Source: an uncultured Christensenellaceae bacterium
GTDB taxonomy: Bacteria > Bacillota > Clostridia > Christensenellales > DTU072
Length of the DNA stretch: 64,000 bases
Assembly: GCA_964613035.1 (NCBI GenBank)
Contig: CAZTFQ010000002.1
Span: 21,901-85,900 of the forward strand
Reading direction: 5' to 3'
Shown here: one piece after another, positions 8,268 through 46,779 of the stretch
Layout: each line of letters begins with the position of its first letter
Position numbering within the stretch: the stretch's first letter is position 1
The notes under the pieces: generated by a model
Database searches by the model: none
What the model was told of the DNA's origin: nothing
What the model saw: the letters and a program-made list of their open reading frames with translations, nothing else
Program-made: the position numbers and the translations under genes

Positions 8268-9605
8268 TTAATCGGCGAGCTGTATCGAAAAATAATTGGT
8301 CTGCACCGCAGGGTCTCCCGCGGGAACTCCGTCCTTTCTCATGGCATTGGCGGGTGAACCGTTATAGATCGACATATCGTCGGTGTTTTGGTAAAACTCT
8401 ATGAACGCGGCGCTGATGTTTTTGACGTCCGTCGCGCCTATTACGGAATAAGGTATCGTCACGGTGAAGGAAAAATAGTCCTTGTTTCTCTCGATAACGA
8501 CCGCGTCGTCCAGCTTGTCGTCGGTGTCTCTTACTCTTCTCCAATTCCATATATACGTAAGACCCGATTTGTAATAGAGATCTCCGCTACCGTATACTCT
8601 TAAGACGGTATCCTTTTTGTTCAGCACCCAGGAAGCGGAATTGGCGGTATCCGTCGTCTTAATCGGAATCATCATAAACTCCGACGAGGTGAAATCGCCG
8701 AAGCCCACTCCTCTCAGTACGAGCGAGTCGGTAGTCGTCTCTATATTGAAATAGAAGTCGTCCGCGCTGTCGTTACGCACGTCGGAAGGATTGGCGAAAG
8801 AATATCGATATCCCGCGATAAGAGATTCTTTGTCGAAGTTGTCCGAGAAGTCTTTCCCGTCGAGATACTCATCGATATATTCTCCGTCCGAGACGTATTT
8901 TACGAACGAGAATATCCCGTGACAATTCTCGGTATATAGCACCGCTTCGACTTCTCCGGAGAATAAAGAGCGTGTGTAATAAGAGGTCATCGCCACGTCG
9001 TCGATAGAGACATATACCCGGTCGCCGCGTTTGATTACCTTGATATTGACGTAATTTCCGTCGGAATAAGCACTTTCGAAGCGTTTGATCGTCTCCAGCG
9101 TGTTGGTTACGCGTCCTTCTTTGACGTCCGTATAGAGGATTCTGTCCTGCATATTATCGCTGAGCTTGACGTAGAAAGAGAGCTCGTTGGGTCCGTCGGT
9201 CAGTTTAACGCCTATCCGTGCGGATTGACCGATATGATACACGCCCAGCGTCGTGACGTCCGCCTCCAGGATACAGTCTATGCCTCGGGTCTCTTTAACC
9301 GCGGCGCTTTGGTTGCCGCCTGAGACGGCTTCCACTGCGGAATAATCGTTAAGTACGCTCATCCCGGAAGTGATGCAATACGTTTTCATTTCTGTTAAAT
9401 CGGGCGTCATATAAGTGTCGTTTTTAGGGTCGGTAGGATTCTGAGAACCCGACGGGGTGGAGCCTGGTTGCGCGGAGCCGGACGGTTCCGTGCCGGAAGG
9501 GACTCCCGAAGACGGATCGGGATCGTTGTCGCAAGCAACGACGGTCGTTACCAGCAGTACGCATAGTATCAAAACTAAGATTATAGATATAACCGAGCGA
9601 CGCAT
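8268..9605 (-). CDS. Secreted lipoprotein, hypothetical
   Basis: Signal peptide plus lipobox (LLVTTVVAC), followed by an S/P/G-rich linker. The ATG at 9605 is preceded by GGAGGGAG. The track start is an upstream GTG. Confidence 0.65.
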   Translation of the reverse strand: MRRSVISIILVLILCVLLVTTVVACDNDPDPSSGVPSGTEPSGSAQPGSTPSGSQNPTDPKNDTYMTPDLTEMKTYCITSGMSVLNDYSAVEAVSGGNQSAAVKETRGIDCILEADVTTLGVYHIGQSARIGVKLTDGPNELSFYVKLSDNMQDRILYTDVKEGRVTNTLETIKRFESAYSDGNYVNIKVIKRGDRVYVSIDDVAMTSYYTRSLFSGEVEAVLYTENCHGIFSFVKYVSDGEYIDEYLDGKDFSDNFDKESLIAGYRYSFANPSDVRNDSADDFYFNIETTTDSLVLRGVGFGDFTSSEFMMIPIKTTDTANSASWVLNKKDTVLRVYGSGDLYYKSGLTYIWNWRRVRDTDDKLDDAVVIERNKDYFSFTVTIPYSVIGATDVKNISAAFIEFYQNTDDMSIYNGSPANAMRKDGVPAGDPAVQTNYFSIQLAD

Positions 9606-9607
9606 TA

Positions 9608-12040
9608 TTACTCCCTCCACATATTTTTCATAGTATATAAAGTGATTCTATTCGCCGTGAACAGACCGTTGGCTGTAAGAGAAATTCCGTCCGACGATAT
9701 CTCGGGGAATACGAGTATTTGCAAGAATTCCTCACCTTGATCGGCATATATCTCGAGATTGGCTCTGTCTAAGAATATCCTCAGCTTAAGCACGCCGTTG
9801 TCGAGAGGCCCTTTCATCTTTAATACGGAATGTCCGTTGACGACGTACTTGAGATGCGATACGTCCGCGACCAGTTCTTCCGTCGTCTTATCGTAAGTCA
9901 AGAGGATATATTCGTCGTCCGACGCGGCGAAGCGCAAGCTGATTTTCGACGCATAATCGAGTTTCAGCTCCAGATTCATATCGAATTCTCTTGCATTGAC
10001 GTCTCCGAATACGTCCTCTCCGTACGCTACGCTCTGTTTTTCGATATCGACTAAAGTTTCGTCGTGGAGGGCGTCGAGCTCTTCTATGGGGCTGTAACAG
10101 ACTTCTATCTTGCCGTTGACGGTCTTAAGGGACAGTTCGCTGAGCAGTCCGATATAACCGTTCCATTCTTTGTCGTCGTACAGCGTACCCGTATAATCGC
10201 ACATCCAGGCGCCTACTATCCAGCGACCTTTTTTCTCGTTATAAAACCCTATCGCGGCGTAGGAATTGCCTGCGGCTATTCTGTATTCATACGTCGTAAG
10301 CAGCTCTATCACTTCCGTCTCCGCACGGAAAACGACGTTGCCGCAGACGTTGACCAGTTGACCGAGCATATACTCTCTGCCGCCGACCGTCAACACCCAC
10401 TTGGTGTTGTCGGGATCATCGTCTACGGGGAGCTTGAAGATATCCACGCATTCTCCGGTGACTTTTATTCCCGAGGCGGTTTTTACGACGCTGTTAAACT
10501 TCCAGTCTATAAGGTTGTCGGAAGTGAATATTTTCAGATTGGTGTACCCTGCCGTGATCATCATCCAATATCCGCCGTTGACGTGAGAGGAATCTTCCAC
10601 CCAGAGTCCTTTGGCATCGCGCATTTCGCCGTATTGATAGTCCGTATTGGATATGACTGGCGCTCCGTCGTTATATTTAATCCAGGTTTCGCCGCCGTCG
10701 AGAGTGTAGGCTATGGACTGCTGCTCTATCCTACGCGTTCCGACAGAGGTCTGCTTGCCTTCCGTATGCGTAGGGCTGTACAAAAGGACCATTCTGGAGC
10801 CCGCGGGCACGCTGTCGTCGAACAGCCCCGAGGTGTTGTTGTAGTCTATGACCGCAGAACCCGACCACATCTGACCGTAATCGTCGGGTAAAACGGCGTC
10901 GGTTTTTTGCTCGAAATGCACCAGATCTTCACTAACCGCGTGTCCCCAGCTTCTCTTGCCGTCGTCGGTGTACTTCTCGCTCCTCTGCCAGAAGATATGA
11001 TAAACTCCGTTATAAGAATCGTACACAAAGCCGTTGGGGTCGTTCAGCCAGCCGCTGTTGGGCGAAAAATGGAAATAACTTCTATACGTTTCGTCATAAT
11101 TCGACAAAATTTCTCTGCGTACGATTATCGGTACCGCCGCCATGGTGGTTTCTCCTTGTTTGATTTCGATGAATATGAAATTCCTCTTTTTGTCCAGCGA
11201 GACGCTCCTAGAAGCTCCTTTAACTCCGTTGATATACGCGTCGTAGTCGGTTGTTACGCTCACCGTAGTCGATTCGTTCTCGGAAGGCGCGGTTACATCG
11301 TACGAAAAAACGGTATTTTTGTAATTAAAATCGATTCCTTCGAGCGAAACGTTGCTTATAGCGGTCGTGTCTCTTGCCAGTATCTTATAGTAGGCGTTGT
11401 TAAAAGTTACGGAAGCGTTCCAGACCATGAATCCGAGATATCCGCCGCCGTTGAGAGTAGAGTCGTAATCGGACCCGACGTATTCTCCGTCCAGATAGGA
11501 CGAAACCGTTCCGCCGAAACACTCTACGCGGAAGTTGTGTGTGGACTCGTTTTGCTGAGCGGTCGTGAGAGACTTGGTCAAATTTTCGTTGCCGGTGCCT
11601 ATAGACCCCGTACCGACCGCGAACACTCTCGTGTTACCTCTGGAATAATCGACGTTCATGCAATACCAGGCTCTGCCGGGATCGGCTTGATTGGGTATGC
11701 CGAACACCAGTCCGGCGGCTTCTCCCGATATGGTGACGTCCGCGGTGAAGACGAAGTCTTTTCCCGCAGGCACCCGAATATTCGAAATATAGAATCTGTC
11801 CGCAGCCTCGAGGTGCGTACCGGTCAAACTTTCCGCGTCGTAACTCCAGGTTCCCCATTTGTACTCGGACATATCCTCGGAATATACGATTTTTTCCAGC
11901 TCTCCCGAGTATCCTATATGCGGATCTTCCTCTGCTGCGGAAGCCGCCCCCAGCGATAATCCTCCGCAACACAATATAAGTATCAGGAGCGTAATTATCG
12001 CGACGCGTCTCAATACGTTTTCTTTTCCGATTGTTTTCAA
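9608..12040 (-). CDS. Glycoside hydrolase family 32 (levanase/beta-fructofuranosidase) with an N-terminal LamG-like domain
   Basis: GH32 catalytic motifs are all present: WLNDPNGFVY (nucleophile), RSWGHAVSEDLVHF (RDP-region) and TGECVDIFKL (EC). A signal peptide is present. The N-terminal block is AAGLVFGIPNQADPGRAWYCMNV. Confidence 0.9.
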   Translation of the reverse strand: MKTIGKENVLRRVAIITLLILILCCGGLSLGAASAAEEDPHIGYSGELEKIVYSEDMSEYKWGTWSYDAESLTGTHLEAADRFYISNIRVPAGKDFVFTADVTISGEAAGLVFGIPNQADPGRAWYCMNVDYSRGNTRVFAVGTGSIGTGNENLTKSLTTAQQNESTHNFRVECFGGTVSSYLDGEYVGSDYDSTLNGGGYLGFMVWNASVTFNNAYYKILARDTTAISNVSLEGIDFNYKNTVFSYDVTAPSENESTTVSVTTDYDAYINGVKGASRSVSLDKKRNFIFIEIKQGETTMAAVPIIVRREILSNYDETYRSYFHFSPNSGWLNDPNGFVYDSYNGVYHIFWQRSEKYTDDGKRSWGHAVSEDLVHFEQKTDAVLPDDYGQMWSGSAVIDYNNTSGLFDDSVPAGSRMVLLYSPTHTEGKQTSVGTRRIEQQSIAYTLDGGETWIKYNDGAPVISNTDYQYGEMRDAKGLWVEDSSHVNGGYWMMITAGYTNLKIFTSDNLIDWKFNSVVKTASGIKVTGECVDIFKLPVDDDPDNTKWVLTVGGREYMLGQLVNVCGNVVFRAETEVIELLTTYEYRIAAGNSYAAIGFYNEKKGRWIVGAWMCDYTGTLYDDKEWNGYIGLLSELSLKTVNGKIEVCYSPIEELDALHDETLVDIEKQSVAYGEDVFGDVNAREFDMNLELKLDYASKISLRFAASDDEYILLTYDKTTEELVADVSHLKYVVNGHSVLKMKGPLDNGVLKLRIFLDRANLEIYADQGEEFLQILVFPEISSDGISLTANGLFTANRITLYTMKNMWRE

Positions 12041-12176
12041 CGTTCTTACTCCTCTTTTTTCGATTTCTCTCGCAAGATTGCCGAATCTTCTTCGGTCAAT
12101 TTAACTATAACACGAAAACGATTTATTTTTTTAGTTGATTTTCATCCCTCATAGTCCATTTTTTTAGTATGCACTC

Positions 12177-12205
12177 TTGACACTCGCGGCGAGGCGGTCT
12201 ACAAT
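12177..12205 (+). promoter_or_regulatory. Sigma-70-type promoter for the ArsR-fusion gene
   Basis: TTGACA (12177-12182), a 17-nt spacer, then TACAAT (12200-12205). The ATG at 12212 lies about 7 nt downstream, so the mRNA is probably leaderless. Confidence 0.5.
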
Positions 12206-12211
12206 ATAAAT

Positions 12212-13159
12212 ATGTTAAAAGCAACCGAAGGAAGCGAGCTGTCCATAACGCTCAAAGACAATGCCGCAGAACTGGAGACTCTTTTCAAGGCGCTGGGGTC
12301 GGAGATACGCATAAAAATTCTACGTCAACTGTATCGTCATCCGATGACCGTGAGAGAGTTGTCGCAGACTTTTCGCGTGCCTATTTCCACGATGAACTTC
12401 CACGTCGCGATGCTGGAGCAAGCCAATCTTATAATAGTCAATCTGATTCCGTCGAAAAAGGGCGCGATAAGAGCGTGCTACGGGAATTTTTCTTTTATTC
12501 ACTTTGAAATGGACGTCCAAAAAGTTTTTCCGGAATTACACACTCACTCCGAAATGATCCCTATCGGCAACTATATAGACTTCAAAAGCGAGGGCGAACA
12601 CGGCTGTGCGTCTCCTCTTCGCTCCTGGCGTAACAACGAGAGCGACTTCTTGAGCAATCGCTCCGATATAGGAATCATATGGACGACTTCCGGCTACGTC
12701 GAATACGGAATAGGCAATTATTTATTCAAAAGATATTCCGTTACGGAGATGACGATTTCTTTCGAGATATGTTCCGAAATCAATTCTTACCGCAACGACT
12801 GGCAATCTATGCTCAACTTCTATATCAACGGCACTCGGGTAGCCTCGTATCTTTCTCCGGGCGACTTCGGCGGCAGACGAGGCACGCTCAACCCCGACTG
12901 GTGGCCCGACAGCAACACCCAGTACGGACTTCTGAAATCGCTGACCGTCAACTCGACGGGCATATATCTCGACCGCAATCTGGTAACCAAAGAATACAAT
13001 ATCAACAATCTGGGACTGGACAAGTCCAATAAAATAGTCTTCCGCATCGAGACCGACGACAAAGAACATTACAACGGCGGCTTCAACCTCTTCGGAAAAA
13101 CTTTCGGAGACTTCCCTCAAGACATATCGGTGGATTACACTTATCGACATAACAATTGA
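12212..13159 (+). CDS. ArsR-family wHTH regulator fused to an approximately 200-aa uncharacterised C-terminal domain
   Basis: N-terminal ArsR/SmtB-like HTH (IRIKILRQLYRHPMTVRELSQTFRVPISTMNFHVAMLEQANLI). The C-terminal domain is conserved with its paralog at 13302-14321 (GxRRGxLNPDWWxDSxTQYGLL...GGFNLFGKxFGDxPQDI). Confidence 0.75.
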   Translation: MLKATEGSELSITLKDNAAELETLFKALGSEIRIKILRQLYRHPMTVRELSQTFRVPISTMNFHVAMLEQANLIIVNLIPSKKGAIRACYGNFSFIHFEMDVQKVFPELHTHSEMIPIGNYIDFKSEGEHGCASPLRSWRNNESDFLSNRSDIGIIWTTSGYVEYGIGNYLFKRYSVTEMTISFEICSEINSYRNDWQSMLNFYINGTRVASYLSPGDFGGRRGTLNPDWWPDSNTQYGLLKSLTVNSTGIYLDRNLVTKEYNINNLGLDKSNKIVFRIETDDKEHYNGGFNLFGKTFGDFPQDISVDYTYRHNN

Positions 13160-13180
13160 TACTTTCCCGATACCTTATAA

Positions 13181-13216
13181 ATATCGCGCGTACGTATGTG
13201 CGCGCGATTCTTTTTA
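13181..13216 (+). terminator. Rho-independent terminator after the ArsR-fusion gene
   Basis: ATATCGCGCG-TACGTATGTG-CGCGCGAT hairpin followed by TCTTTTT. The stem is a 22-nt perfect alternating pyrimidine-purine tract. Confidence 0.6.
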
Positions 13217-13301
13217 AGTAAATCGATATCTGCTTCGGACTTCAATCAACCGCAACGCCTCCTTGCGGTTCCCTTACATCCGATTTCGGCGCGCGCACGT
13301 A

Positions 13302-14321
13302 TTACGTATTGATTTTCGGAGAAACATTTTTATAGGTCACTAAAAGTTTGATATCCTGAGGATAATCTCCGAAACTTTTCCCGAACAAATTAAATCCGCC
13401 TACGTGACGGGCGTCGTCTTTCACGGCTATGCGGAACTTCAACAAATTACTCTGACGGATATCCAAATCTTCGACGCACACGTCGGAAACCTTCTTTTCG
13501 TTAAGATACGTACCGTCAAAACGAATATCCAAAGTCGTCAGCAGTCCGTATTGAGTATGCGAATCCGCCCACCAATCGGGGTTGAGCTTACCTCTGCGCT
13601 CTCCGTAATCCCCCGCCGAAGTGTAAGTACACAGTTCTATATCGTTGACGGAAAAGGTCAGATCGCTCTTACAATTCTGATTATATCCCGGATATTCCGA
13701 ACAGACTTCGAAACTGAAACATAAAGATATGATATTCCTTCTGTCTTTGAGCGTAAGGTTGTGGGCTATTTGAGTATCGTCAACCTCATAATCGAGCATA
13801 GGAACGGAATATTCCAAAAAGCCTCTTTTCAACCATATTATCCCCGCCTCGAAGCGTTGCGGAGAAGAAAAGAAACACTCTGCGTCGGACGGATATACTC
13901 TTTTTTCGGTAGCCAATCCGCACGGAGTTTCTTTAATGGCGTAATCGGTATAACTGCCGACGGGAATGTCTATAACCCGAGTCTCGTTGATATAACGCAC
14001 GTCGTCCGTCGGATGCCCTGTATATATCGTGAACATATAGTTGTTAAGCGTCAGCCTCTTTTGATTGCCGATTTTTTTAGCTTCATTGGAATATTTCAAC
14101 AAACCCGCCGCCACCAACGACTTGACGTGAAACGAAATCGTCGAAACGGGTATGTTAAGTTTCAAGGCGATATCGCTGATCGAATAATTATGAATATTGA
14201 CCAATTTTAGAATTTTTCTTCTGATCGGCACCGATAAAGCCGACACTATACCTGCAATGACATCTTCGTCGTCATACAAATTGAGCGATTTTAATCTGGA
14301 ATTATCAAAAGATCTGTTCAT
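13302..14321 (-). CDS. ArsR-family wHTH regulator fused to an uncharacterised C-terminal domain (paralog)
   Basis: HTH is IRRKILKLVNIHNYSISDIALKLNIPVSTISFHVKSLVAAGLL. The C-terminal approximately 200 aa is homologous to 12212-13159. RBS AAGGAG. The two genes are convergent. Confidence 0.75.
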   Translation of the reverse strand: MNRSFDNSRLKSLNLYDDEDVIAGIVSALSVPIRRKILKLVNIHNYSISDIALKLNIPVSTISFHVKSLVAAGLLKYSNEAKKIGNQKRLTLNNYMFTIYTGHPTDDVRYINETRVIDIPVGSYTDYAIKETPCGLATEKRVYPSDAECFFSSPQRFEAGIIWLKRGFLEYSVPMLDYEVDDTQIAHNLTLKDRRNIISLCFSFEVCSEYPGYNQNCKSDLTFSVNDIELCTYTSAGDYGERRGKLNPDWWADSHTQYGLLTTLDIRFDGTYLNEKKVSDVCVEDLDIRQSNLLKFRIAVKDDARHVGGFNLFGKSFGDYPQDIKLLVTYKNVSPKINT

Positions 14322-14600
14322 ACCGACTCCTTTTATCCTAATTAGTAAAAATTTTGCACGCGAGTGCGCTTATATTGTATACCCGTATCCGGACAAAACA
14401 CAACCGAATTACAATCTATGTTGAAAATTAAAACAAACAAAATTTGCTTTTATAAAATTTTGTTGTAATCCCATGCACAAGGTTTATAATACAAGTGAAA
14501 AAGCTTACTTGCAAGGGCTTTTTCACGCCGTATTTCAACTAACGGCTGATATTTGCGTTTTAGCAAATAACGAAAGCGACAGCGACGCAAAAATTTATTT

Positions 14601-14629
14601 TTGTAAGCCGTGTAATGTTATTATATAAT
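14601..14629 (+). promoter_or_regulatory. Candidate promoter of the three-gene lipoprotein operon
   Basis: TTGTAA, a 17-nt spacer, then TATAAT at 14624-14629, about 28 nt upstream of the ATG at 14657. Confidence 0.45.
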
Positions 14630-14656
14630 TGAAAAAAATTTCGAGAGGATATTTTT

Positions 14657-17191
14657 ATGAAAAAACAACTTCTGGTTATTCTGTTATTCGTCTGCTTGGT
14701 ATTCGCAATGATAGCATGTACCGACAACCAATCGCCGTCTGGAACGGATGATTCCGGTACGATCTCGGGAACAGAACTCTCCGGTACGCTTGATCCGCCC
14801 CCGTCCGAGCCCTCAGGGAGCATTGAGCCGACGCCTTCAGAACCTTCCAAACCGTCCGATACCATTGAGCCGTCAGACCACTCCGGCACGATCCCGCCAT
14901 CCGAACCGTCGGGCGGTGAAGAAGAGCCCGTCACTCCGATAGAACCGGAACAATCCGTTAAATATGCGATACGACTATATAAAACGGAGGACGTAGACGA
15001 CTACACCGTCTTAGAATATGAGGAAGGCGAAATCGTCGACGTATCCGAATGGCCCGTTCCGTCGGGAATAAAATTCGAGGGCGAGACTATTCCTTTCGTG
15101 CATTGGTTGGACGAGCAACAAGAAAACGTCGTTTCGGAAGACTTCTCGATGCCGTCACGTTCTATGGCATTTTATGCGACTTACGATTATCCGCAATTAT
15201 TCAGATGGAGTTACGATGCGGATGCACAGACATATACTTCTACCGGAGCGGGCATTCGTCCCGCAAAAGGTATCGAGGGCGGATATTCTGGCACTCTTTC
15301 CGCAGAATTGACCGTCAACAACGCTTCCTCTACCGGTATCGGTATTATATGGAATCTGACTTGCGGCGACAACGATTATCCTTATGCAGACGGTTGCTCG
15401 TATTGGTATTTTCACCTCAATCCGAGCAACGGCGCTTTTCAATTAGCCTACGTGCAAGAAGACGGCACTTATATTGCAATCAAGACCGTATCCCTCTCGG
15501 ACAGTCCTCAATCGTGGCAAGATAAATATGCCGAATACAAAAATTCTTCCGACGAAGCGCTTTCAACCGTTTTCTCTGTAGAATACAACACGTCTGAAAT
15601 ATCCCTATACGTAGACAGAGAAGAGCTCTACACGTACACCGGCGACATGCTCGGCGGCATCCTCGGGAAAGGCGTCGGCATAAGAACCAACGTCGCCGAC
15701 AACGTAGCCAAAAATATAACCTATACTCCTGACGTCGCGGCGAGCAACACCTATATCGTAACGTACGTCAACACCGCGGAAAACACGGAGGAGGTCAAGT
15801 TGGTCTCGACGGACAACTTCGTATTACCCTCTCCTTCCGTAACGGGATACGAATTCCTCGGCTGGTATGAAGACGAGGAGTTCACTTCTCAACAAATAAC
15901 CGAAGAATTTGTCATCTGTGCAGACGTTACTTTCTACGGAAAATTCGTCCCGATACAGACTAAAAACGGCTATAATATCTATTCGGACGGTCGGTACGAG
16001 TCGACCGTCGCCAAAGCGACCGTCACCGTAGACGGAGCGGGCAGCAGATACGGCAAGTGGTCTACCGACATAACCGTAACGGATCGCAACAACATTCGTA
16101 CGGGTATATTGATTAACTCTTACGTACCTTCTTCGGAAAGCACCGTCCCCTATGACAATACCTCCGTTAGCGGTATATATGTCCATCATAACGTCAATGC
16201 CAACGTCAACTTCACTCTTACTACCATTCACGAGGGCGTTTACGAATCTCACCCCGACGGCACGAAAGAAGCGCTTAAAGTATCGAAATACGACTCCTCG
16301 TCAGAGGGCGCGCTCGGCGCTTATTACGCCAAAAACAGAGCTTTCGTCAACGGCGAAACCGACAGCCTTACGTTCAATCTTGCCGTAGAAGTTCTCAATA
16401 CGTACATTAAAGTATATCTCGACGGAGAATGCATTATAGAATATACCGCAGAGAGCGGACTAGAGATGTTCAACGATTACGACGATTGTCTAGGGGTGGG
16501 TTTCACGACCGCGTCCGTCGGAACCACTTTCTCTGATTATAGCTACACGGAAATGGAAGCGCAGGAAAAACCTACCACTAAAAACGGTTTCATAATCAGT
16601 GCGGACGGTTCGTCTTACACTTCCGACGCCGCCACCGTCGCAACTATCGTCGACGGCATAAGCGGACGGTACGGCAAATGGTCCGTCGACATAACCGAAA
16701 CCAATCGTACCAATGCGAGAATAGGAATATTGATCAACGCCTACGTCAAGTCAGACGACGGACAAGTCAAATATACCGACCAAAGCGTATGCGGTTATTA
16801 TCTGCATCATAGTATAAAAAGCAACACCAACTTCACCCTCAGCACTATTTATCGAGGCACCTATCAGCAGCAGCCCGACGGAACGAAAATGAATCTCTTG
16901 GTATGCAAGTATAACGCCGAGTCGTCGGGCGCACTTAAAGATTATCACGCAAGATGCAAAGCTTTCTTGGCAAAAGAAACCGACAGTCTTACGTTTAATC
17001 TCGGAATCGAAGTTATGCCCGAATACATTAAAGCTTACCTCGACGGAGAATGCATCATAGAATATACGACCGCCGCAGGACTCGGTTTGTTCGACAACGT
17101 AGACGGCTGTATAGGCGTGGGATTCAATACCCAGACGATCGGAACGGTCTTCAGCAATATGAGTTTCGTTCCTTATATTGCAGAGGACTAA
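14657..17191 (+). CDS. Large secreted lipoprotein with an SPE-rich linker, a LamG-like domain, a Listeria-Bacteroides repeat and two tandem approximately 200-aa domains
   Basis: Lipobox MIACTDN. PSEPSG-type linker. The LamG-like block is TGIGIIWNLTCGDNDYPYADGCSYWYFHLNP. A GYEFLGWYEDEEF repeat is present. Residues around 430-640 are internally duplicated at 640-844 (KNGYNIYSDGRYES.../KNGFIISADGSSYT...). Confidence 0.75.
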   Translation: MKKQLLVILLFVCLVFAMIACTDNQSPSGTDDSGTISGTELSGTLDPPPSEPSGSIEPTPSEPSKPSDTIEPSDHSGTIPPSEPSGGEEEPVTPIEPEQSVKYAIRLYKTEDVDDYTVLEYEEGEIVDVSEWPVPSGIKFEGETIPFVHWLDEQQENVVSEDFSMPSRSMAFYATYDYPQLFRWSYDADAQTYTSTGAGIRPAKGIEGGYSGTLSAELTVNNASSTGIGIIWNLTCGDNDYPYADGCSYWYFHLNPSNGAFQLAYVQEDGTYIAIKTVSLSDSPQSWQDKYAEYKNSSDEALSTVFSVEYNTSEISLYVDREELYTYTGDMLGGILGKGVGIRTNVADNVAKNITYTPDVAASNTYIVTYVNTAENTEEVKLVSTDNFVLPSPSVTGYEFLGWYEDEEFTSQQITEEFVICADVTFYGKFVPIQTKNGYNIYSDGRYESTVAKATVTVDGAGSRYGKWSTDITVTDRNNIRTGILINSYVPSSESTVPYDNTSVSGIYVHHNVNANVNFTLTTIHEGVYESHPDGTKEALKVSKYDSSSEGALGAYYAKNRAFVNGETDSLTFNLAVEVLNTYIKVYLDGECIIEYTAESGLEMFNDYDDCLGVGFTTASVGTTFSDYSYTEMEAQEKPTTKNGFIISADGSSYTSDAATVATIVDGISGRYGKWSVDITETNRTNARIGILINAYVKSDDGQVKYTDQSVCGYYLHHSIKSNTNFTLSTIYRGTYQQQPDGTKMNLLVCKYNAESSGALKDYHARCKAFLAKETDSLTFNLGIEVMPEYIKAYLDGECIIEYTTAAGLGLFDNVDGCIGVGFNTQTIGTVFSNMSFVPYIAED

Positions 17192-17198
17192 AAGAATT

Positions 17199-18920
17199 AT
17201 GAAAAAGATTGTTAAGATATCGGTTGTTTTGATTTTTGTTCTTATGATACTGACTCTATCCGACATCGCACCTATTACGGCAGACGCCTACTCCTGGAAA
17301 AACGGAGAAAAGGTCTACTCCATAGCGACCGATAGAATAATGTACGAGACGTCTCTGCCTTACGACGAAACCATCAATACTTTCGAGGCGTGGATTACGT
17401 TGCCGTCGACCGTTGCGGATAATATAGACGGCGGAGTCATATTCGGCAACTATTACAACAATCCTACCGGATACCCGGGATGCGTCAATTTCGGCATAGG
17501 CAACAACGGAAACTTCTACCTATATTGGAACAACGGCGTCTACAAGTATACTTTCGAAAGCGTAGATTTAAGAAACGGCGAGCGTACTCACGTCGCGATA
17601 GTCAGGGATAAAGAAAACTCTCGACTTTTATATTACGTCAACGGCGAACTCGAAGAATGTTTGACGGTAAAATTAAACGAAAGCGTCTGTCAAATGAAAT
17701 TCGGCATAGGCACGGATTGGAACAACTGGTATAACGAAAAAACACCTTTCTTCGGAAAGATAGAGCAGATTACGCTCTATTCTACCGCGCAGACTCAGGC
17801 TGTTATACAGGAAGATATGCAGACGACCGACATACGTTCTTCTTCTAGAAACGGGCTTATGTCCAACTGGTATTTCGGCAAAAACTGGAGCTTTGAAAAT
17901 ACTATTATTCCCGATACCGCCGACATCGGTAACGATTGTCTGGTCAATACCTACGATCAATACGTAGAGGTTAAAGATGTCGACGATTACGATTACACTC
18001 TTATGGTCGTCCCAGATATGCAGGCGATGAACTATTGGGAAAAAAGCAATTTCCGTCAACAGAGCCAATGGATCGTCAATACTGCGAAAGAGCTCAACAC
18101 TCGATTCGTTATGTATCTAGGAGACATGACTGAGAGCAAGTATTCCGTCAATCCCGATGCGAGCGAACAAGAATGGAAAGACGCCTATAAATACATATCT
18201 ATGCTTGACGGAGTGGTTCCTTACTCCGTAATATTAGGCAATCACGATTATGACAGTTGGGCTACTCTAAACAGAAACAGTACGATGTTCAACAAATACT
18301 TCTCCTATGATAAGTATAGCCAAACGGACTCTTTCGGAGGGGCTTTCAAAGAAGGATGTATGGACAACTACTATTCTCTTATATCCGTCGGCGACGTGGA
18401 ATATCTAATTTTTGCTTTGGAATACGGTCCCAGAAACAACGTCGTCAACTGGGTCGACAGAATAATAAGCGAGCATCCTTATAGCCGCGTTATAGTTACG
18501 ACTCACAGTTACTTGGACCCCGACGGCACTTTGGTCGACTCCGACGATATGTTCGCTCCGTCCAGAACCATATCTTACGACAGCAGCAGCAACAACGGAT
18601 CGGACTTTTGGGAAAAAGTTTTGAGCAAGCATTCCAACGTCTTTATGGTCTTCAGCGGACACGTTTGCACGGATTACGTCGTGCGCAGACAAGACCTCGG
18701 CGTCAACGGCAACACCGTCACGTCCGTATTGGTCAACGCGCAGGGCGCGATGATGACGTCAGCAATGAATACTCTGCTGGTAATTAAGGTCAATGAGAGG
18801 ACGAAGACGATGCACTTCTGCTATTACAGTCCCGAATACGACGCCTGCTATAACTACGGCGGTCAATTCAGTATGTCCTTCGCCGACGAATACAATCCCG
18901 CGATAGGCGGCATCGCATAA
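17199..18920 (+). CDS. Secreted LamG-like domain fused to a calcineurin-like metallophosphoesterase
   Basis: Signal peptide. The LamG-like region is GGVIFGNYY...YLYWNNGVYKY...LLYYVNGEL. Metallophosphatase motifs are YLGDMTE and VILGNHDYDSW. Start refined to 17199 (MKKIVK), 8 nt after the upstream stop. Confidence 0.8.
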   Translation: MKKIVKISVVLIFVLMILTLSDIAPITADAYSWKNGEKVYSIATDRIMYETSLPYDETINTFEAWITLPSTVADNIDGGVIFGNYYNNPTGYPGCVNFGIGNNGNFYLYWNNGVYKYTFESVDLRNGERTHVAIVRDKENSRLLYYVNGELEECLTVKLNESVCQMKFGIGTDWNNWYNEKTPFFGKIEQITLYSTAQTQAVIQEDMQTTDIRSSSRNGLMSNWYFGKNWSFENTIIPDTADIGNDCLVNTYDQYVEVKDVDDYDYTLMVVPDMQAMNYWEKSNFRQQSQWIVNTAKELNTRFVMYLGDMTESKYSVNPDASEQEWKDAYKYISMLDGVVPYSVILGNHDYDSWATLNRNSTMFNKYFSYDKYSQTDSFGGAFKEGCMDNYYSLISVGDVEYLIFALEYGPRNNVVNWVDRIISEHPYSRVIVTTHSYLDPDGTLVDSDDMFAPSRTISYDSSSNNGSDFWEKVLSKHSNVFMVFSGHVCTDYVVRRQDLGVNGNTVTSVLVNAQGAMMTSAMNTLLVIKVNERTKTMHFCYYSPEYDACYNYGGQFSMSFADEYNPAIGGIA

Positions 18921-18937
18921 AAAAAGAGGATATCGAT

Positions 18938-41343: not shown

Positions 41344-42939
41344 CTATTTTTTCAACGCCGCTTCAACGAAGCCTTTGAACAGCGGATGAGGCTTATTGGG
41401 ACGGCTCTTGAATTCCGGATGATATTGGACGCCGACGAAGAATCTGCAAGCGGGATTCTCCACGGTCTCGACCGTCTCTCCGTCGGGAGTGGTGCCGCCT
41501 ATCACCAAACCTTTTTTCGTTAAAACGTCTCTGTAGGCGTTGTTAAACTCATAGCGGTGGCGGTGTCTTTCGGAAATCTCTTCCTCGCCGTATAAGCGAT
41601 ATAGAAGAGTGCCTTCTTTCACTTTCACGGGGTGTGCGCCCAGTCTGAGCGTGCCGCCCATGCCGACGTCGCCGTTCTGTCCCTTGAGATAATCTATCAC
41701 CTTATGGGGGCTGTTTTGATCGAACTCGCCCGAATCGGCGTCCTTAAGTCCCGCAACGTTACGCGCAAACTCCACTACGGACATTTGCATACCCAGGCAT
41801 ATGCCGAGGAAGGGCACGTCGTGCTCTCTGGCGTAACGGATGGCGGAGATTTTCCCTTCCACTCCGCGATTGCCGAAGCCTCCCGGGACGAGAATTCCGT
41901 CGGCTTTTCCCAGCAATTTTTCGACATTGTCGTCGGTTACGGTCTCGCTGTCGATCCAGTCGATATCTATTCCCGCTCCGCACCAATATCCGGCATGACG
42001 GAGGGACTCCGCTATAGAGAGATACGCGTCGTGAAGGGATACGTATTTACCTACGACGGCTATATTGACTCGCGAGGAGGGGTTTTTGATTTTTTTCACC
42101 ATATCTTCCCATTCTCTCAGGTCGGGTTCGGGCGCGTCTATGCCCAGCTCTCTGCACACCACGCGAGAAAAACCGTTTTTCTCCAACATAAGAGGCGCCT
42201 CATAGAGGGTCGGAAGAGTTATGTTTTCTATAACGCAATCTTTTTTCACGTTGCAGAACATCGCGATTTTATTGAACACGTCTTCTTCCGGCGGCTCGTC
42301 GCAACGCAAAACGATTATGTCGGGGCTTATTCCCAGACCTCTGAGCTCCTTGACGGAATGCTGGGTCGGTTTGGTTTTATGTTCTTCGCTGCCTTTGAGA
42401 TACGGCACGAGAGTAACGTGGATAAAGAGAGAGTTTTCTTTGCCGACTTCCAGAGATATCTGTCTGACGGCTTCTATATACGCCTGGGACTCGATGTCGC
42501 CGATAGTCCCGCCCAGCTCCGTAATTACGACGTCGGCGTCGGACTCTCTGCCCTCGTTGTAAATGAATTCTTTTATCTCGTTGGTTATATGCGGAATAAT
42601 CTGGACTGTCGAGCCTAGATACTCGCCGCGACGTTCTTTGTTGAGGACGTTCCAGTAGACTTTACCCGTGGTGAGATTGGAATATTTATTGAGATTTTCG
42701 TCGATAAAGCGCTCGTAGTGACCGAGGTCGAGATCGGTCTCCGCGCCGTCTTCCGTAACGAAAACTTCCCCGTGCTGATACGGACTCATCGTACCGGGAT
42801 CGACGTTGATGTACGGGTCGAGTTTCTGCGCCGCGACCTTAAGACCTCTTGCCTTCAACAGGCGCCCAAGAGACGCCGCCGTAATCCCCTTGCCGAGACC
42901 GGAAACCACTCCGCCCGTTACGAAAACGTATTTTTTCAT
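41344..42939 (-). CDS. pyrG: CTP synthase
   Basis: [25 protein letters not shown]... with the full synthetase and glutaminase domains, including GICLGMQ. Confidence 0.95.
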
Positions 42940-43252
42940 ATATACCTCACTGCTATAGTCTGCAACCTAATCTCTCCTCGGGGAGTGTTTTTCACTCAAT
43001 CTCCGAGAGCTCTCGACCGTAACGTATTATATTACTCTTAAAATACGCCTGTCAATCGATTTGCTCCCGCGCGCCGACCAAGGAAAAAGAACCGCCCCCG
43101 ATTCTCGGCGTTGCCGCCAAATAACGATGTTTGGTTAAACCGCCGTTTATGCTCCTTTTGCTTCGGTTTCGGATGCCCTAAGCGACAAATCGGATAAAGA
43201 GGCATTAACGCGAAAGGCAATCGAAAGGAGTGACGACTCGCTCCGTTAAATG

Positions 43253-45311: not shown

Positions 45312-46730
45312 TTACCTCCTAGTGCCGTTTTTAGGATTCCGCGGAGATGTCGGCATCTGACCGATGACGAAAGACGTCGGAACGGCAGCTCTTCTCTGTG
45401 GACGTTTTTTCACGGGTCCCGGGGTCGGCGGACGATTGCCAGCCGGAACGAAACTCGGGAGTTTCTGCGCGCGGTTGCGGAAAATTTTCGGCAAAACCAA
45501 CAGAACCACACCTACGGCAAGGGTAAGCATGACGGGAATATTAACGCATACGACGGCATACTCGTTGCCGAGGAACGCGTCCAGAGTCATCGAAAAATAA
45601 TTGCTCAGGCAATAGTCCGATTCCAGACCGTAAGGTATCGCGAGGAATGCAGGCATCAACATCGCTATTAGGGAGAAGATTATCAACATAATCGCATAGA
45701 TATGAAGTCGACGTCCCGTATAAGTGAAGAGACTGACCACGGACGTTACCAGACCGCACGCGAGGCAAATCAATATTCCAATATAAGAATATAGCGTCGA
45801 GTAAACCGCGAGGCTGTAGAGGACGTTTTCTTTATCGTACTCGCCGTCGGCGTTTTTCTTGATTTCGAGGTACTCGTTCTTTTCGAAAATAAACCTTGCG
45901 TAAAAAGCGTCCGCACCGCTAATCGTCTCGTTGTCCTTCACGAAACTCAAGTCGTACGCGGAGAGCGGTTTGACCTGCGCCACGCCTTTAATTATATCCG
46001 CGAGAGTGACGTCCATCGTCAGCATCCCCAGCTCGTCGTAGAGTCTGACGGTCCCCGGAGTGATCGAAGAGCCGTCGGGGACGTACGGCTCGTACAATCT
46101 TTCGTATCCTTCCGCAAAAGAACCTTGCGGGAAGTCGCCGTCGTTGATTACCGCGTAGTCGAGAGCGTCGGGTCCCAGCTTAAACGAGTACAGCGAGACG
46201 ATATTGAGTCCTCCCGTAGAAGCGGAGATTTCGTCGACCGTATACGACGGAAGTATCATCCCCAGCATCAACACTACCGCTACTATCACGATGAGGACCA
46301 CGTTGATCAGAGGAAGAGAAATTCCGTAATATCTCGTCTTCCTAAAATACTCGTCGAAACGGAAGTCCATCTGGTCGTAAGACGACTCTCTGCCTTTTGA
46401 CGCTTTCGGCTTGATTCCGACCTTTTTCAATTGCTTATATAGCTCGGTGCTGCCGTAATTACCCGCATACACCTTGTCTATCATATTGCGATAAGCCTTC
46501 TTCTTGTCCTTGAGACGACTCTTGGCATTGGGAGACTCGCACTCGGCTATCTCTTGATCGAGCGCGTGAATTTTATCCTCGAGAGCATATATAAGCAACG
46601 CCTCGTCGCGGTTCTGCCACTCGAACGCGTCGGACTCTCTGTCGGCACTTTTTATGAGTTCGCTTCTAGAAGGAAGTTTTTTCTTAACCTCTTTCGCGGA
46701 CTTTTTTTTGTCGTAAGACTTCTTGCTCAT
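45312..46730 (-). CDS. Hypothetical membrane protein with a basic N-terminus and a P/R-rich C-tail
   Basis: 472 aa. Lys-rich N-region. TM helices lie around residues 150-175 and 325-430. Confidence 0.55.
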   Translation of the reverse strand: MSKKSYDKKKSAKEVKKKLPSRSELIKSADRESDAFEWQNRDEALLIYALEDKIHALDQEIAECESPNAKSRLKDKKKAYRNMIDKVYAGNYGSTELYKQLKKVGIKPKASKGRESSYDQMDFRFDEYFRKTRYYGISLPLINVVLIVIVAVVLMLGMILPSYTVDEISASTGGLNIVSLYSFKLGPDALDYAVINDGDFPQGSFAEGYERLYEPYVPDGSSITPGTVRLYDELGMLTMDVTLADIIKGVAQVKPLSAYDLSFVKDNETISGADAFYARFIFEKNEYLEIKKNADGEYDKENVLYSLAVYSTLYSYIGILICLACGLVTSVVSLFTYTGRRLHIYAIMLIIFSLIAMLMPAFLAIPYGLESDYCLSNYFSMTLDAFLGNEYAVVCVNIPVMLTLAVGVVLLVLPKIFRNRAQKLPSFVPAGNRPPTPGPVKKRPQRRAAVPTSFVIGQMPTSPRNPKNGTRR

Positions 46731-46779
46731 ATGAAATTATTATATAATAACGGGCGCGGTTTGTAAACAACTAAATTTT

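Follow-up and report, generated by a model that had tools for sequence, protein, structure and literature searches.

Convergent ArsR-type regulators with a carbohydrate-binding-module-like C-terminal domain as candidate sugar-responsive local regulators in an uncultured Christensenellaceae bacterium

A 64,000-nucleotide (nt) stretch of contig CAZTFQ010000002.1 from an uncultured Christensenellaceae bacterium contains two converging regulator genes, regA and regB. The whole stretch is referred to here as the window, and all coordinates and strands are positions within it. It seems rather probable that the two gene products are independent, paralogous one-component regulators that respond to sugars and act locally, and that they represent a widespread family in which an ArsR-type winged helix is joined to a jelly roll resembling those of carbohydrate-binding modules (CBMs). 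What can be read directly are the two genes and their paralogy, the domains and their predicted fold, the size of the family, the gene neighbourhoods, and the geometry and conservation of the promoter. Coordinates are collected in Table 1.

An earlier note on this DNA, hereafter the original prediction, had described a convergent regulator pair, and both open reading frames (ORFs) are indeed present and run towards each other; 142 nt separate their stop codons. The products are 35% identical across their full length (E 1e-58), which makes them paralogues. Because of an A-rich stretch on the other side of its hairpin, the intrinsic terminator of regA may work bidirectionally. The convergent arrangement is retained in one related assembly (L015) and is absent at the other regA loci (L001–L004), where the gene downstream of regA is unrelated; regA and regB thus appear to be two local regulators that act independently and lie side by side by chance, not a functional pair. 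The 362-aa gene found downstream of the regA orthologues at these four loci was considered as a degenerate regB and rejected, as it has no similarity. An Rfam scan of 11900–14800 gave nothing credible, so a riboswitch or known small RNA is not involved.

Domain architecture and the protein family

The N-terminal domains of both proteins score above the curated Pfam gathering thresholds of ArsR-type helix-turn-helix (HTH) models, regA with HTH_20 (PF12840, 35.2 against 27) and HTH_5 (PF01022, 26.6 against 22) and regB with HTH_5 (37.1 against 22), and the winged-helix fold is superposable on solved ArsR/SmtB proteins, which places both in that family. The Pfam matches are confined to this domain, leaving about 220 other residues unmatched. 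The marks of a metalloregulator are missing. The NCBIfam model NF033788 gives 39.1 bits for regA and 37.5 bits for regB, under its cut-off of 55; neither N-domain contains a CxC motif (that of regB has no cysteine, and C89, in the wing, is the only one in regA); and the canonical alpha3 CxC and alpha5 Asp/His/Glu metal sites are absent from both. In the AlphaFold2 model of regA, the four helices and the wing are followed by a linker and then the beta domain, with no alpha5 dimerisation helix. The ArsR/SmtB winged helix without metal-binding cysteines that had originally been proposed is therefore borne out. The TrmB HTH model (PF01978) gives 13.6 bits for regB, against a threshold of 25.6, and does not match regA; the TrmB C-terminal domain is unmatched.

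Full-length regA, modelled with AlphaFold2 from a 41-sequence alignment, reached a predicted local distance difference test (pLDDT) score of 89.9, with an all-beta domain at residues 110–312 and a linker of lower confidence. Modelled by itself, the C-domain reached a pLDDT of 95.2 and a predicted template-modelling (TM) score of 0.91. The matches returned by Foldseek for this domain were weak (E ≥ 7e-5, TM ≤ 0.42) and were all to carbohydrate-binding sandwiches, namely BcsB, Fbs1, CBM6, CBM22, CBM36, CBM51 and lectins. The predicted fold is a beta jelly roll like that of solved CBM6, CBM35 and CBM36 members; compared with these galactose-binding-like jelly rolls, the domain is about 80 residues larger and only 11–18% identical, with TM scores of at most 0.42. 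It also resides in the cytoplasm, joined to a DNA-binding domain; CBMs, by contrast, work outside the cell as modules attached to enzymes. At the level of sequence profiles, the domain does not belong with the Pfam CBM models: Pfam gave no match for regA or regB at E ≤ 1, and 25 diverse members pointed to no consistent family at E ≤ 10. NCBIfam left the domain unmatched, and a profile of 25 C-domains found no PDB sequence at E ≤ 10. Judged by the structural models, the C-domain is an unannotated family with a CBM-like fold, outside any described CBM family.

The structure prediction that had been suggested as a check thus returned a high-confidence beta jelly roll and no common annotated domain. 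The original prediction had called the domain, of about 200 aa, novel; it does lack a Pfam or NCBIfam annotation, but it is not rare, with about 1200 clusters at 50% identity. It had also spoken of a ligand-sensing jelly roll. The fold was foreseen correctly, the model being confident and its nearest folds CBM-like, while the sensing of a ligand is something that we, too, infer.

The C-terminal motifs noticed originally, GDFGGRRGxLNPDWWxDxxTQYG and GGFNLFGKxFGDxPQDI, occur in the two proteins alike and are conserved family-wide. Among 128 diverse members (regA numbering), Y165, E185, E189, S199, G239, G290, G295 and G299 are 99–100% conserved and C187 is conserved in 84%; N206 and Q237 are also counted among the near-invariant polar residues of the domain. 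On this conservation, Y165, E185, E189 and S199 form a candidate binding site. The loop directly after E189 carries subfamily signatures, such as ‘EDHEYN’ in the clade linked to galK (two members of which were checked for context). As a pattern only, the E-x-C-x-E strand recalls the catalytic E-x-D-x-E strand of the glycoside hydrolase (GH) family 16 jelly roll, and from this likeness a pseudo-enzyme origin, and even residual activity on the inducer, is conceivable.

A word-seeded search with the whole protein found 2767 homologues, mostly of 305–330 aa and labelled only as ‘ArsR family transcriptional regulator’ or ‘HTH domain-containing protein’. Their hosts are mostly Clostridia/Bacillota and include Clostridia, Lachnospiraceae, Paenibacillus/Cohnella and Halothermothrix, besides a few other groups; among cultured organisms, homologues occur in Halothermothrix orenii, Cohnella and Konateibacter. 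A profile of the C-domain alone, searched against 1.84 billion cluster representatives, matched 1184, 805 and 361 of them at E ≤ 1e-3, 1e-10 and 1e-30, respectively. Nearly all of the top 150 matches are 296–335 aa long, with the domain at about residues 100–310, and the shorter matches look like fragments. Two proteins with other domains in place of the ArsR HTH, P0261 (TPR plus C-domain) and P0199 (DnaA N-terminus plus C-domain), look like, and probably are, chimeric assemblies or gene calls, and they were not counted as further contexts of the domain. NCBI files one member, P0032 (L009, L010), under ‘Candidatus Bathyarchaeia archaeon’; the genes around it look bacterial, with a dCache methyl-accepting chemotaxis protein, MerR, GntR and a CUT1 ATP-binding cassette (ABC) transporter, and this points to a mis-binned contig. 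In the literature we found no characterised member, structure or domain definition, the only related report being the prediction of ArbA, discussed below.

Gene neighbourhoods, proposed mechanism and known systems

Each of the 11 homologue loci has carbohydrate or surface-glycan surroundings, and the regulator is usually divergent from the first gene of the operon, as are regA and regB; none of the 11 contains metal-resistance or metal-transport genes. The neighbours of regA orthologues are a GH32 gene and a lipoprotein gene. In other members they are a CUT1 ABC transporter with sulfatases and a GH (P0028), galK-galE(-galT) (P0117, P0094), a substrate-binding protein, two permeases and GH2 in that order (P0032), GH43 with an ABC transporter (P0114, P0072) and EamA-?-GH127 (P0010). 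The regB orthologues (88% and 55% identity) neighbour an operon of a Flg_new lipoprotein and a LamG-metallophosphoesterase protein, and a relative of 51% identity neighbours a MalK-type sugar ABC transporter. The regB subfamily is consistently linked to this Flg_new/LamG-metallophosphoesterase operon (window, L015:84-4683 and L016:906-6800; 55–88% regulator identity), and a phosphorylated glycan is one possible substrate of this surface system.

In the window itself, the two regulators had been said to flank the fructanase and lipoprotein genes divergently. This is indeed how they lie, regA against the GH32 gene, identified by Pfam, and regB against the lipoprotein gene 14657..17191. The likely targets of regA are the GH32 gene and the lipoprotein gene 8268..9620. 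Unusual beside glycan-utilisation genes is an 877-aa protein (21120..23753, +) with a Thiol_cytolysin (cholesterol-dependent cytolysin-like) domain (E 5.7e-33).

In the mechanism that we propose, the cytoplasmic jelly roll of about 210 aa would bind a mono- or oligosaccharide that the neighbouring locus frees from the polymer it attacks, and this would alter the binding of the winged-helix dimer to operators in the shared divergent intergenic region. The regulator regA would control the operon of the secreted GH32 fructanase and the lipoprotein, and probably also itself, with a fructan-derived sugar as its effector; fructose or fructan is a plausible effector for regA alone. The product of regB would control the Flg_new-lipoprotein/LamG-metallophosphoesterase operon and would respond to a ligand other than that of regA. 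Repression relieved by sugar is the more likely sign, by analogy with the ArsR family and from the predicted positions of the ArbA operators. Transcription of regA would start from a near-consensus sigma-A promoter and yield a leaderless mRNA. Throughout, it is the binding and identity of the ligand, the choice between repressor and activator, the operator sequences and the actual transcription start site (TSS) that we infer.

One parallel is ArbA (Athe_1102/Csac_1556) of Caldicellulosiruptor, which is predicted to belong to the ArsR family and to regulate arabinoside utilisation (Rodionov et al. 2021, PMC8579813); it was presented as the first member of that family to be tied to carbohydrate use (PMC8579813). 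Its gene is divergent from the GH51 gene abfA, operators are predicted in the shared intergenic region, and it is a predicted repressor (PMC8579813). The genes regA and GH32 follow the same regulatory logic, with an ArsR-family gene divergent from that of a glycoside hydrolase, and homologues stand beside GH43, GH127, GH2 and GH32 genes. ArbA is a comparative-genomics prediction only, and it was compared with regA from its published description.

The ArsR/SmtB metalloregulators SmtB, CzrA, ArsR, CadC, HlyU and SrnR differ in that regA and regB are without the alpha3 CxC, the alpha5 site and the alpha5 helix, add a 210-aa beta sandwich, and lie in a context of sugar utilisation rather than metal resistance. 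Proteins of the TrmB family, such as Thermococcus/Pyrococcus TrmB and TrmBL1, combine an N-terminal winged helix with a C-terminal sugar-binding domain and are local regulators of sugar ABC transporter or glycolytic genes. Their design is analogous to that of regA and regB, although the sensor folds differ and regA and regB fail the TrmB HTH threshold. Alignment with Pyrococcus PH1932 and Phr, which also have an ArsR-type winged helix followed by a C-terminal domain, is limited to the N-terminal ~97 residues; their C-terminal parts are short dimerisation modules, unlike the 210-aa jelly roll. Sugar or polysaccharide sensing by a beta sandwich or jelly roll is coupled to transcription control in AraC and in the RsgI anti-sigma factors of Clostridium thermocellum. 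Both differ from regA and regB in domain order and in the DNA-binding domain: AraC begins with a cupin and ends with an AraC-type HTH, and RsgI has extracellular CBM-like sensors on a membrane anti-sigma factor.

Promoters, operator candidates and competing explanations

That the regA mRNA is leaderless, with a predicted start at or within one base of the AUG, is well supported by the geometry and conservation of its promoter. The TTGACA-17-TACAAT promoter lies as originally described, in its coordinates, its 17-nt spacer and its 6-nt gap to the ATG. The window contains 8 sites matching at least 11 of the 12 consensus positions, against 0.54 ± 0.70 in shuffles (15-fold enriched), so that the regA promoter is not a chance match. 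Transcription usually starts at +7 relative to the −10 element; with the −10 of regA ending at 12205, this would place the start at A12212 and give an mRNA beginning with 5′-AUG. No Shine-Dalgarno sequence precedes this ATG, nor does any alternative in-frame start have one: 12212 is the first start codon after the in-frame stop, and the next in-frame start, M46, lies inside the HTH. Shine-Dalgarno sequences are present in most genes of the window, regB included, and in most family members elsewhere, while about a quarter of the window genes have no recognisable one. In two orthologous sequence types (regA products 87–88% identical) the arrangement is TTGACA-17-TAGAAT-6-ATG and TTGACT-17-TATAAT-6-ATG. 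The hexamers, the length of the spacer and the 6-nt gap have thus been kept although most of the spacer sequence has changed, which is the kind of phylogenetic footprint that a functional promoter leaves. Both features of a leaderless gene, a −10 element that puts the predicted TSS at the start codon and the lack of a Shine-Dalgarno, are found in regA, and the leaderless transcript proposed in the original prediction gains from the conservation of this geometry.

A candidate for a second leaderless or near-leaderless gene is the 472-aa ORF 45312..46730 (−), where, in the region 46730–46767, the putative promoter TTTACA-17-TATAAT (11/12) ends at 46739, with 8 nt (AATTTCAT) between it and the ATG. 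This ORF has no Shine-Dalgarno and no Pfam match. From the similar geometry, the organism probably uses leaderless or near-leaderless initiation occasionally. Elsewhere in the window, a perfect 12/12 sigma-70 consensus promoter, TTGACA-18-TATAAT, stands at 43026–43055 (−) upstream of ORF 41344..42939, and a near-consensus promoter, TTGACA-17-TATTAT, at 19945–19973 (+) drives a tRNA cluster (region 19945–20381).

Operator candidates lie on both sides of the pair. In the regA–GH32 intergenic region, the first copy of the direct repeat ATTTTTTTAGT (12125–12135) overlaps the GH32 −35 region and the second stands at about −44 to −54 from the regA start; a weak promoter-like site (8/12) lies at 12101. 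The −10 TACAAT of the putative regB promoter is conserved in L015 and L016, and the position of this promoter implies a regB leader of about 45 nt, with a Shine-Dalgarno. The invariance of ATTGTAATTCG in the three regB-type loci extends down to 55% protein identity, and this makes it the best candidate for the regB operator. No operator motif common to regA and regB was found, and none is expected, since their recognition helices differ. Compared with related loci, the window has about 125 nt more between regB and the gene at 14657. Within 14436–14636 this intergenic region carries a duplicated promoter-like segment (14439–14502 and 14590–14636, each TTGTAA-16/17-TATAAT), as well as a perfect 10-nt inverted repeat, AACAAAATTT-N9-AAATTTTGTT, at 14436–14464; a perfect 10-bp hairpin, GTGAAAAAGC-N12-GCTTTTTCAC, lies at 14495–14526.

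The regA mRNA could instead be leadered, from a promoter further upstream or a TSS several bases from the ATG, with initiation independent of a Shine-Dalgarno. The weak site at 12101 and the quarter of window genes without a recognisable Shine-Dalgarno would allow this, and the TSS is known only as a prediction. However, the 171-nt intergenic region has no strong plus-strand promoter besides the 11/12 site at 12177, and the retention of its hexamers and 6-nt gap in two orthologous sequence types makes a leader unlikely. The sign of regulation is also open to another reading, in which proteins of the same architecture are sugar-dependent activators, the ligand-bound regulator binding upstream of the target −35 and recruiting RNA polymerase. 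The invariant ATTGTAATTCG lies immediately upstream of the putative regB −35 and outside it, the second regA repeat copy would be suitably placed at its distance from the regA start, and the GH32 candidate promoter, with a poor −35 and reliance on its extended −10, has the typical make-up of a promoter that depends on an activator. Repressors make up the overwhelming majority of the ArsR family, however, and the first copy of the regA repeat overlaps the −35 region of GH32. The ArbA sites, too, are predicted to overlap promoter elements (PMC8579813). We therefore regard activation as improbable and prefer repression relieved by sugar.

Several points weigh against a sugar-sensing role itself. 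The likeness to CBMs exists at the fold level only, with 110–130 of 211 residues aligned at 11–18% identity. The most conserved motifs (GDFGGRRG..NPDWW..TQYG and GGFNLFG) are identical in subfamilies beside very different sugar loci, which fits a structural or allosteric role better than one in ligand specificity. The operon linked to regB (Flg_new lipoproteins, LamG-metallophosphoesterase) is not obviously carbohydrate-related, and the operator candidates are weak, the regA repeat being AT-rich and its second copy different in one orthologue. Beta sandwiches are, moreover, promiscuous folds that also serve in oligomerisation or protein binding. The jelly roll might be an oligomerisation or protein-interaction module that substitutes for the missing alpha5 and senses no small molecule, the signal arriving otherwise. 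This is a good deal less credible, as 210 aa, near-invariant polar residues (E185, E189, Y165, S199, N206 and Q237) and subfamily-specific loops exceed the needs of a dimer interface, the nearest folds all bind carbohydrate, and tight linkage to sugar loci calls for sensing in a one-component protein. Least probable by far is that the C-domain senses metal or redox through the E-x-C-x-E strand, in the ArsR-family tradition. E185 and E189 are ~100% conserved, C187 is at 84%, and the HTH belongs to a metal-sensor family; but C187 is not invariant, no metal-resistance or transport genes occur in any of the 11 homologue loci, the NCBIfam metalloregulator score is under its cut-off, and the canonical alpha3 and alpha5 sites are absent.

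Table 1. Positions of regA, regB and surrounding features in the window
Feature	Position	Strand	Description
regA	12212..13159	+	315-aa regulator; ArsR-type winged helix plus jelly-roll C-domain; no Shine-Dalgarno
regA winged-helix DNA-binding domain	12254..12484	+	residues 15–91; four helices plus beta-hairpin wing; no alpha5
regA C-terminal beta jelly roll, putative sugar sensor	12539..13147	+	residues 110–312
regB	13302..14321	−	339-aa regA paralogue of identical architecture; AAGGAG Shine-Dalgarno 5 nt before ATG
regB ArsR-type HTH	14091..14228	−	Pfam HTH_5, residues 32–77
regB C-terminal jelly roll	13323..13979	−	~residues 115–333; from alignment with regA and family
regA −35 TTGACA	12177..12182	+	TTGACA/TTGACA/TTGACT in window and two orthologous sequence types
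regA −10 TACAAT	12200..12205	+	ends 6 nt (ATAAAT) before ATG 12212; predicted TSS A12212
Intrinsic terminator of regA	13183..13208	+	GC-rich hairpin then T-run; folded inter-stop region z-score −4.2
Nearly invariant block, regA–GH32 intergenic region	12095..12176		window and both orthologous sequence types
Extended −10 TGtTATAGT	12112->12104	−	plausible GH32 promoter; poor −35
Direct repeat ATTTTTTTAGT	12125-12135 and 12158-12168		copies 33 nt apart; weak candidate regA operator
Putative regB promoter	14374..14403	−	−35 TTGTGT (14403->14398), 18-nt spacer, −10 TACAAT (14379->14374)
ATTGTAATTCG motif	14405..14415	− (coordinates on + strand)	abuts putative regB −35; invariant in three regB-type loci
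GH32 fructanase with signal peptide	9608..12040	−	Pfam Glyco_hydro_32N/C; divergent from regA
Lipoprotein gene	8268..9620		likely regA target together with GH32
regB-divergent operon	14657..19843	+	three genes; Pfam
Flg_new-repeat lipoprotein	14657..17191	+	first gene, divergent from regB
LamG plus metallophosphoesterase protein	17178..18920	+	regB-divergent operon
Flg_new protein	18938..19843	+	regB-divergent operon
tRNA-Met	19990-20065	+	tRNA cluster
tRNA-Met	20211-20287	+	tRNA cluster
tRNA-Glu	20307-20381	+	tRNA cluster

Meaning for the family and its hosts

The one-component design of these proteins is known; what is new is the sensor-type C-domain, which is previously undescribed, and common yet unannotated. 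It merits a family definition and a solved structure. The promoter of regA, with its predicted leaderless transcript, offers a clean and conserved test case for leaderless translation in a Firmicute that uses Shine-Dalgarno sequences.

We also put forward, more tentatively, that the C-domain may be a new class of cytoplasmic CBM-like sensor, and that the proteins carrying it may form an unrecognised major family of glycan-responsive one-component regulators in Clostridia and other Bacillota. Its subfamilies would be tuned to fructans, arabinans/xylans, galactose or sulfated glycans by the loops around the invariant Y165/E185/E189/S199 site.

Gut and plant-biomass Clostridia have many glycan-utilisation loci, the regulators of which are poorly understood; better-understood counterparts are SusR and the hybrid two-component and extracytoplasmic function (ECF) systems of Bacteroides. 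If the members of this family are sugar sensors, a new annotation as carbohydrate regulators could be given to several thousand proteins (about 1200 clusters at 50% identity). Prediction of regulons and substrates would then become feasible for the glycan loci of Firmicutes, and the compact scaffold of a winged helix plus a CBM-like domain would be usable for the engineering of oligosaccharide biosensors.

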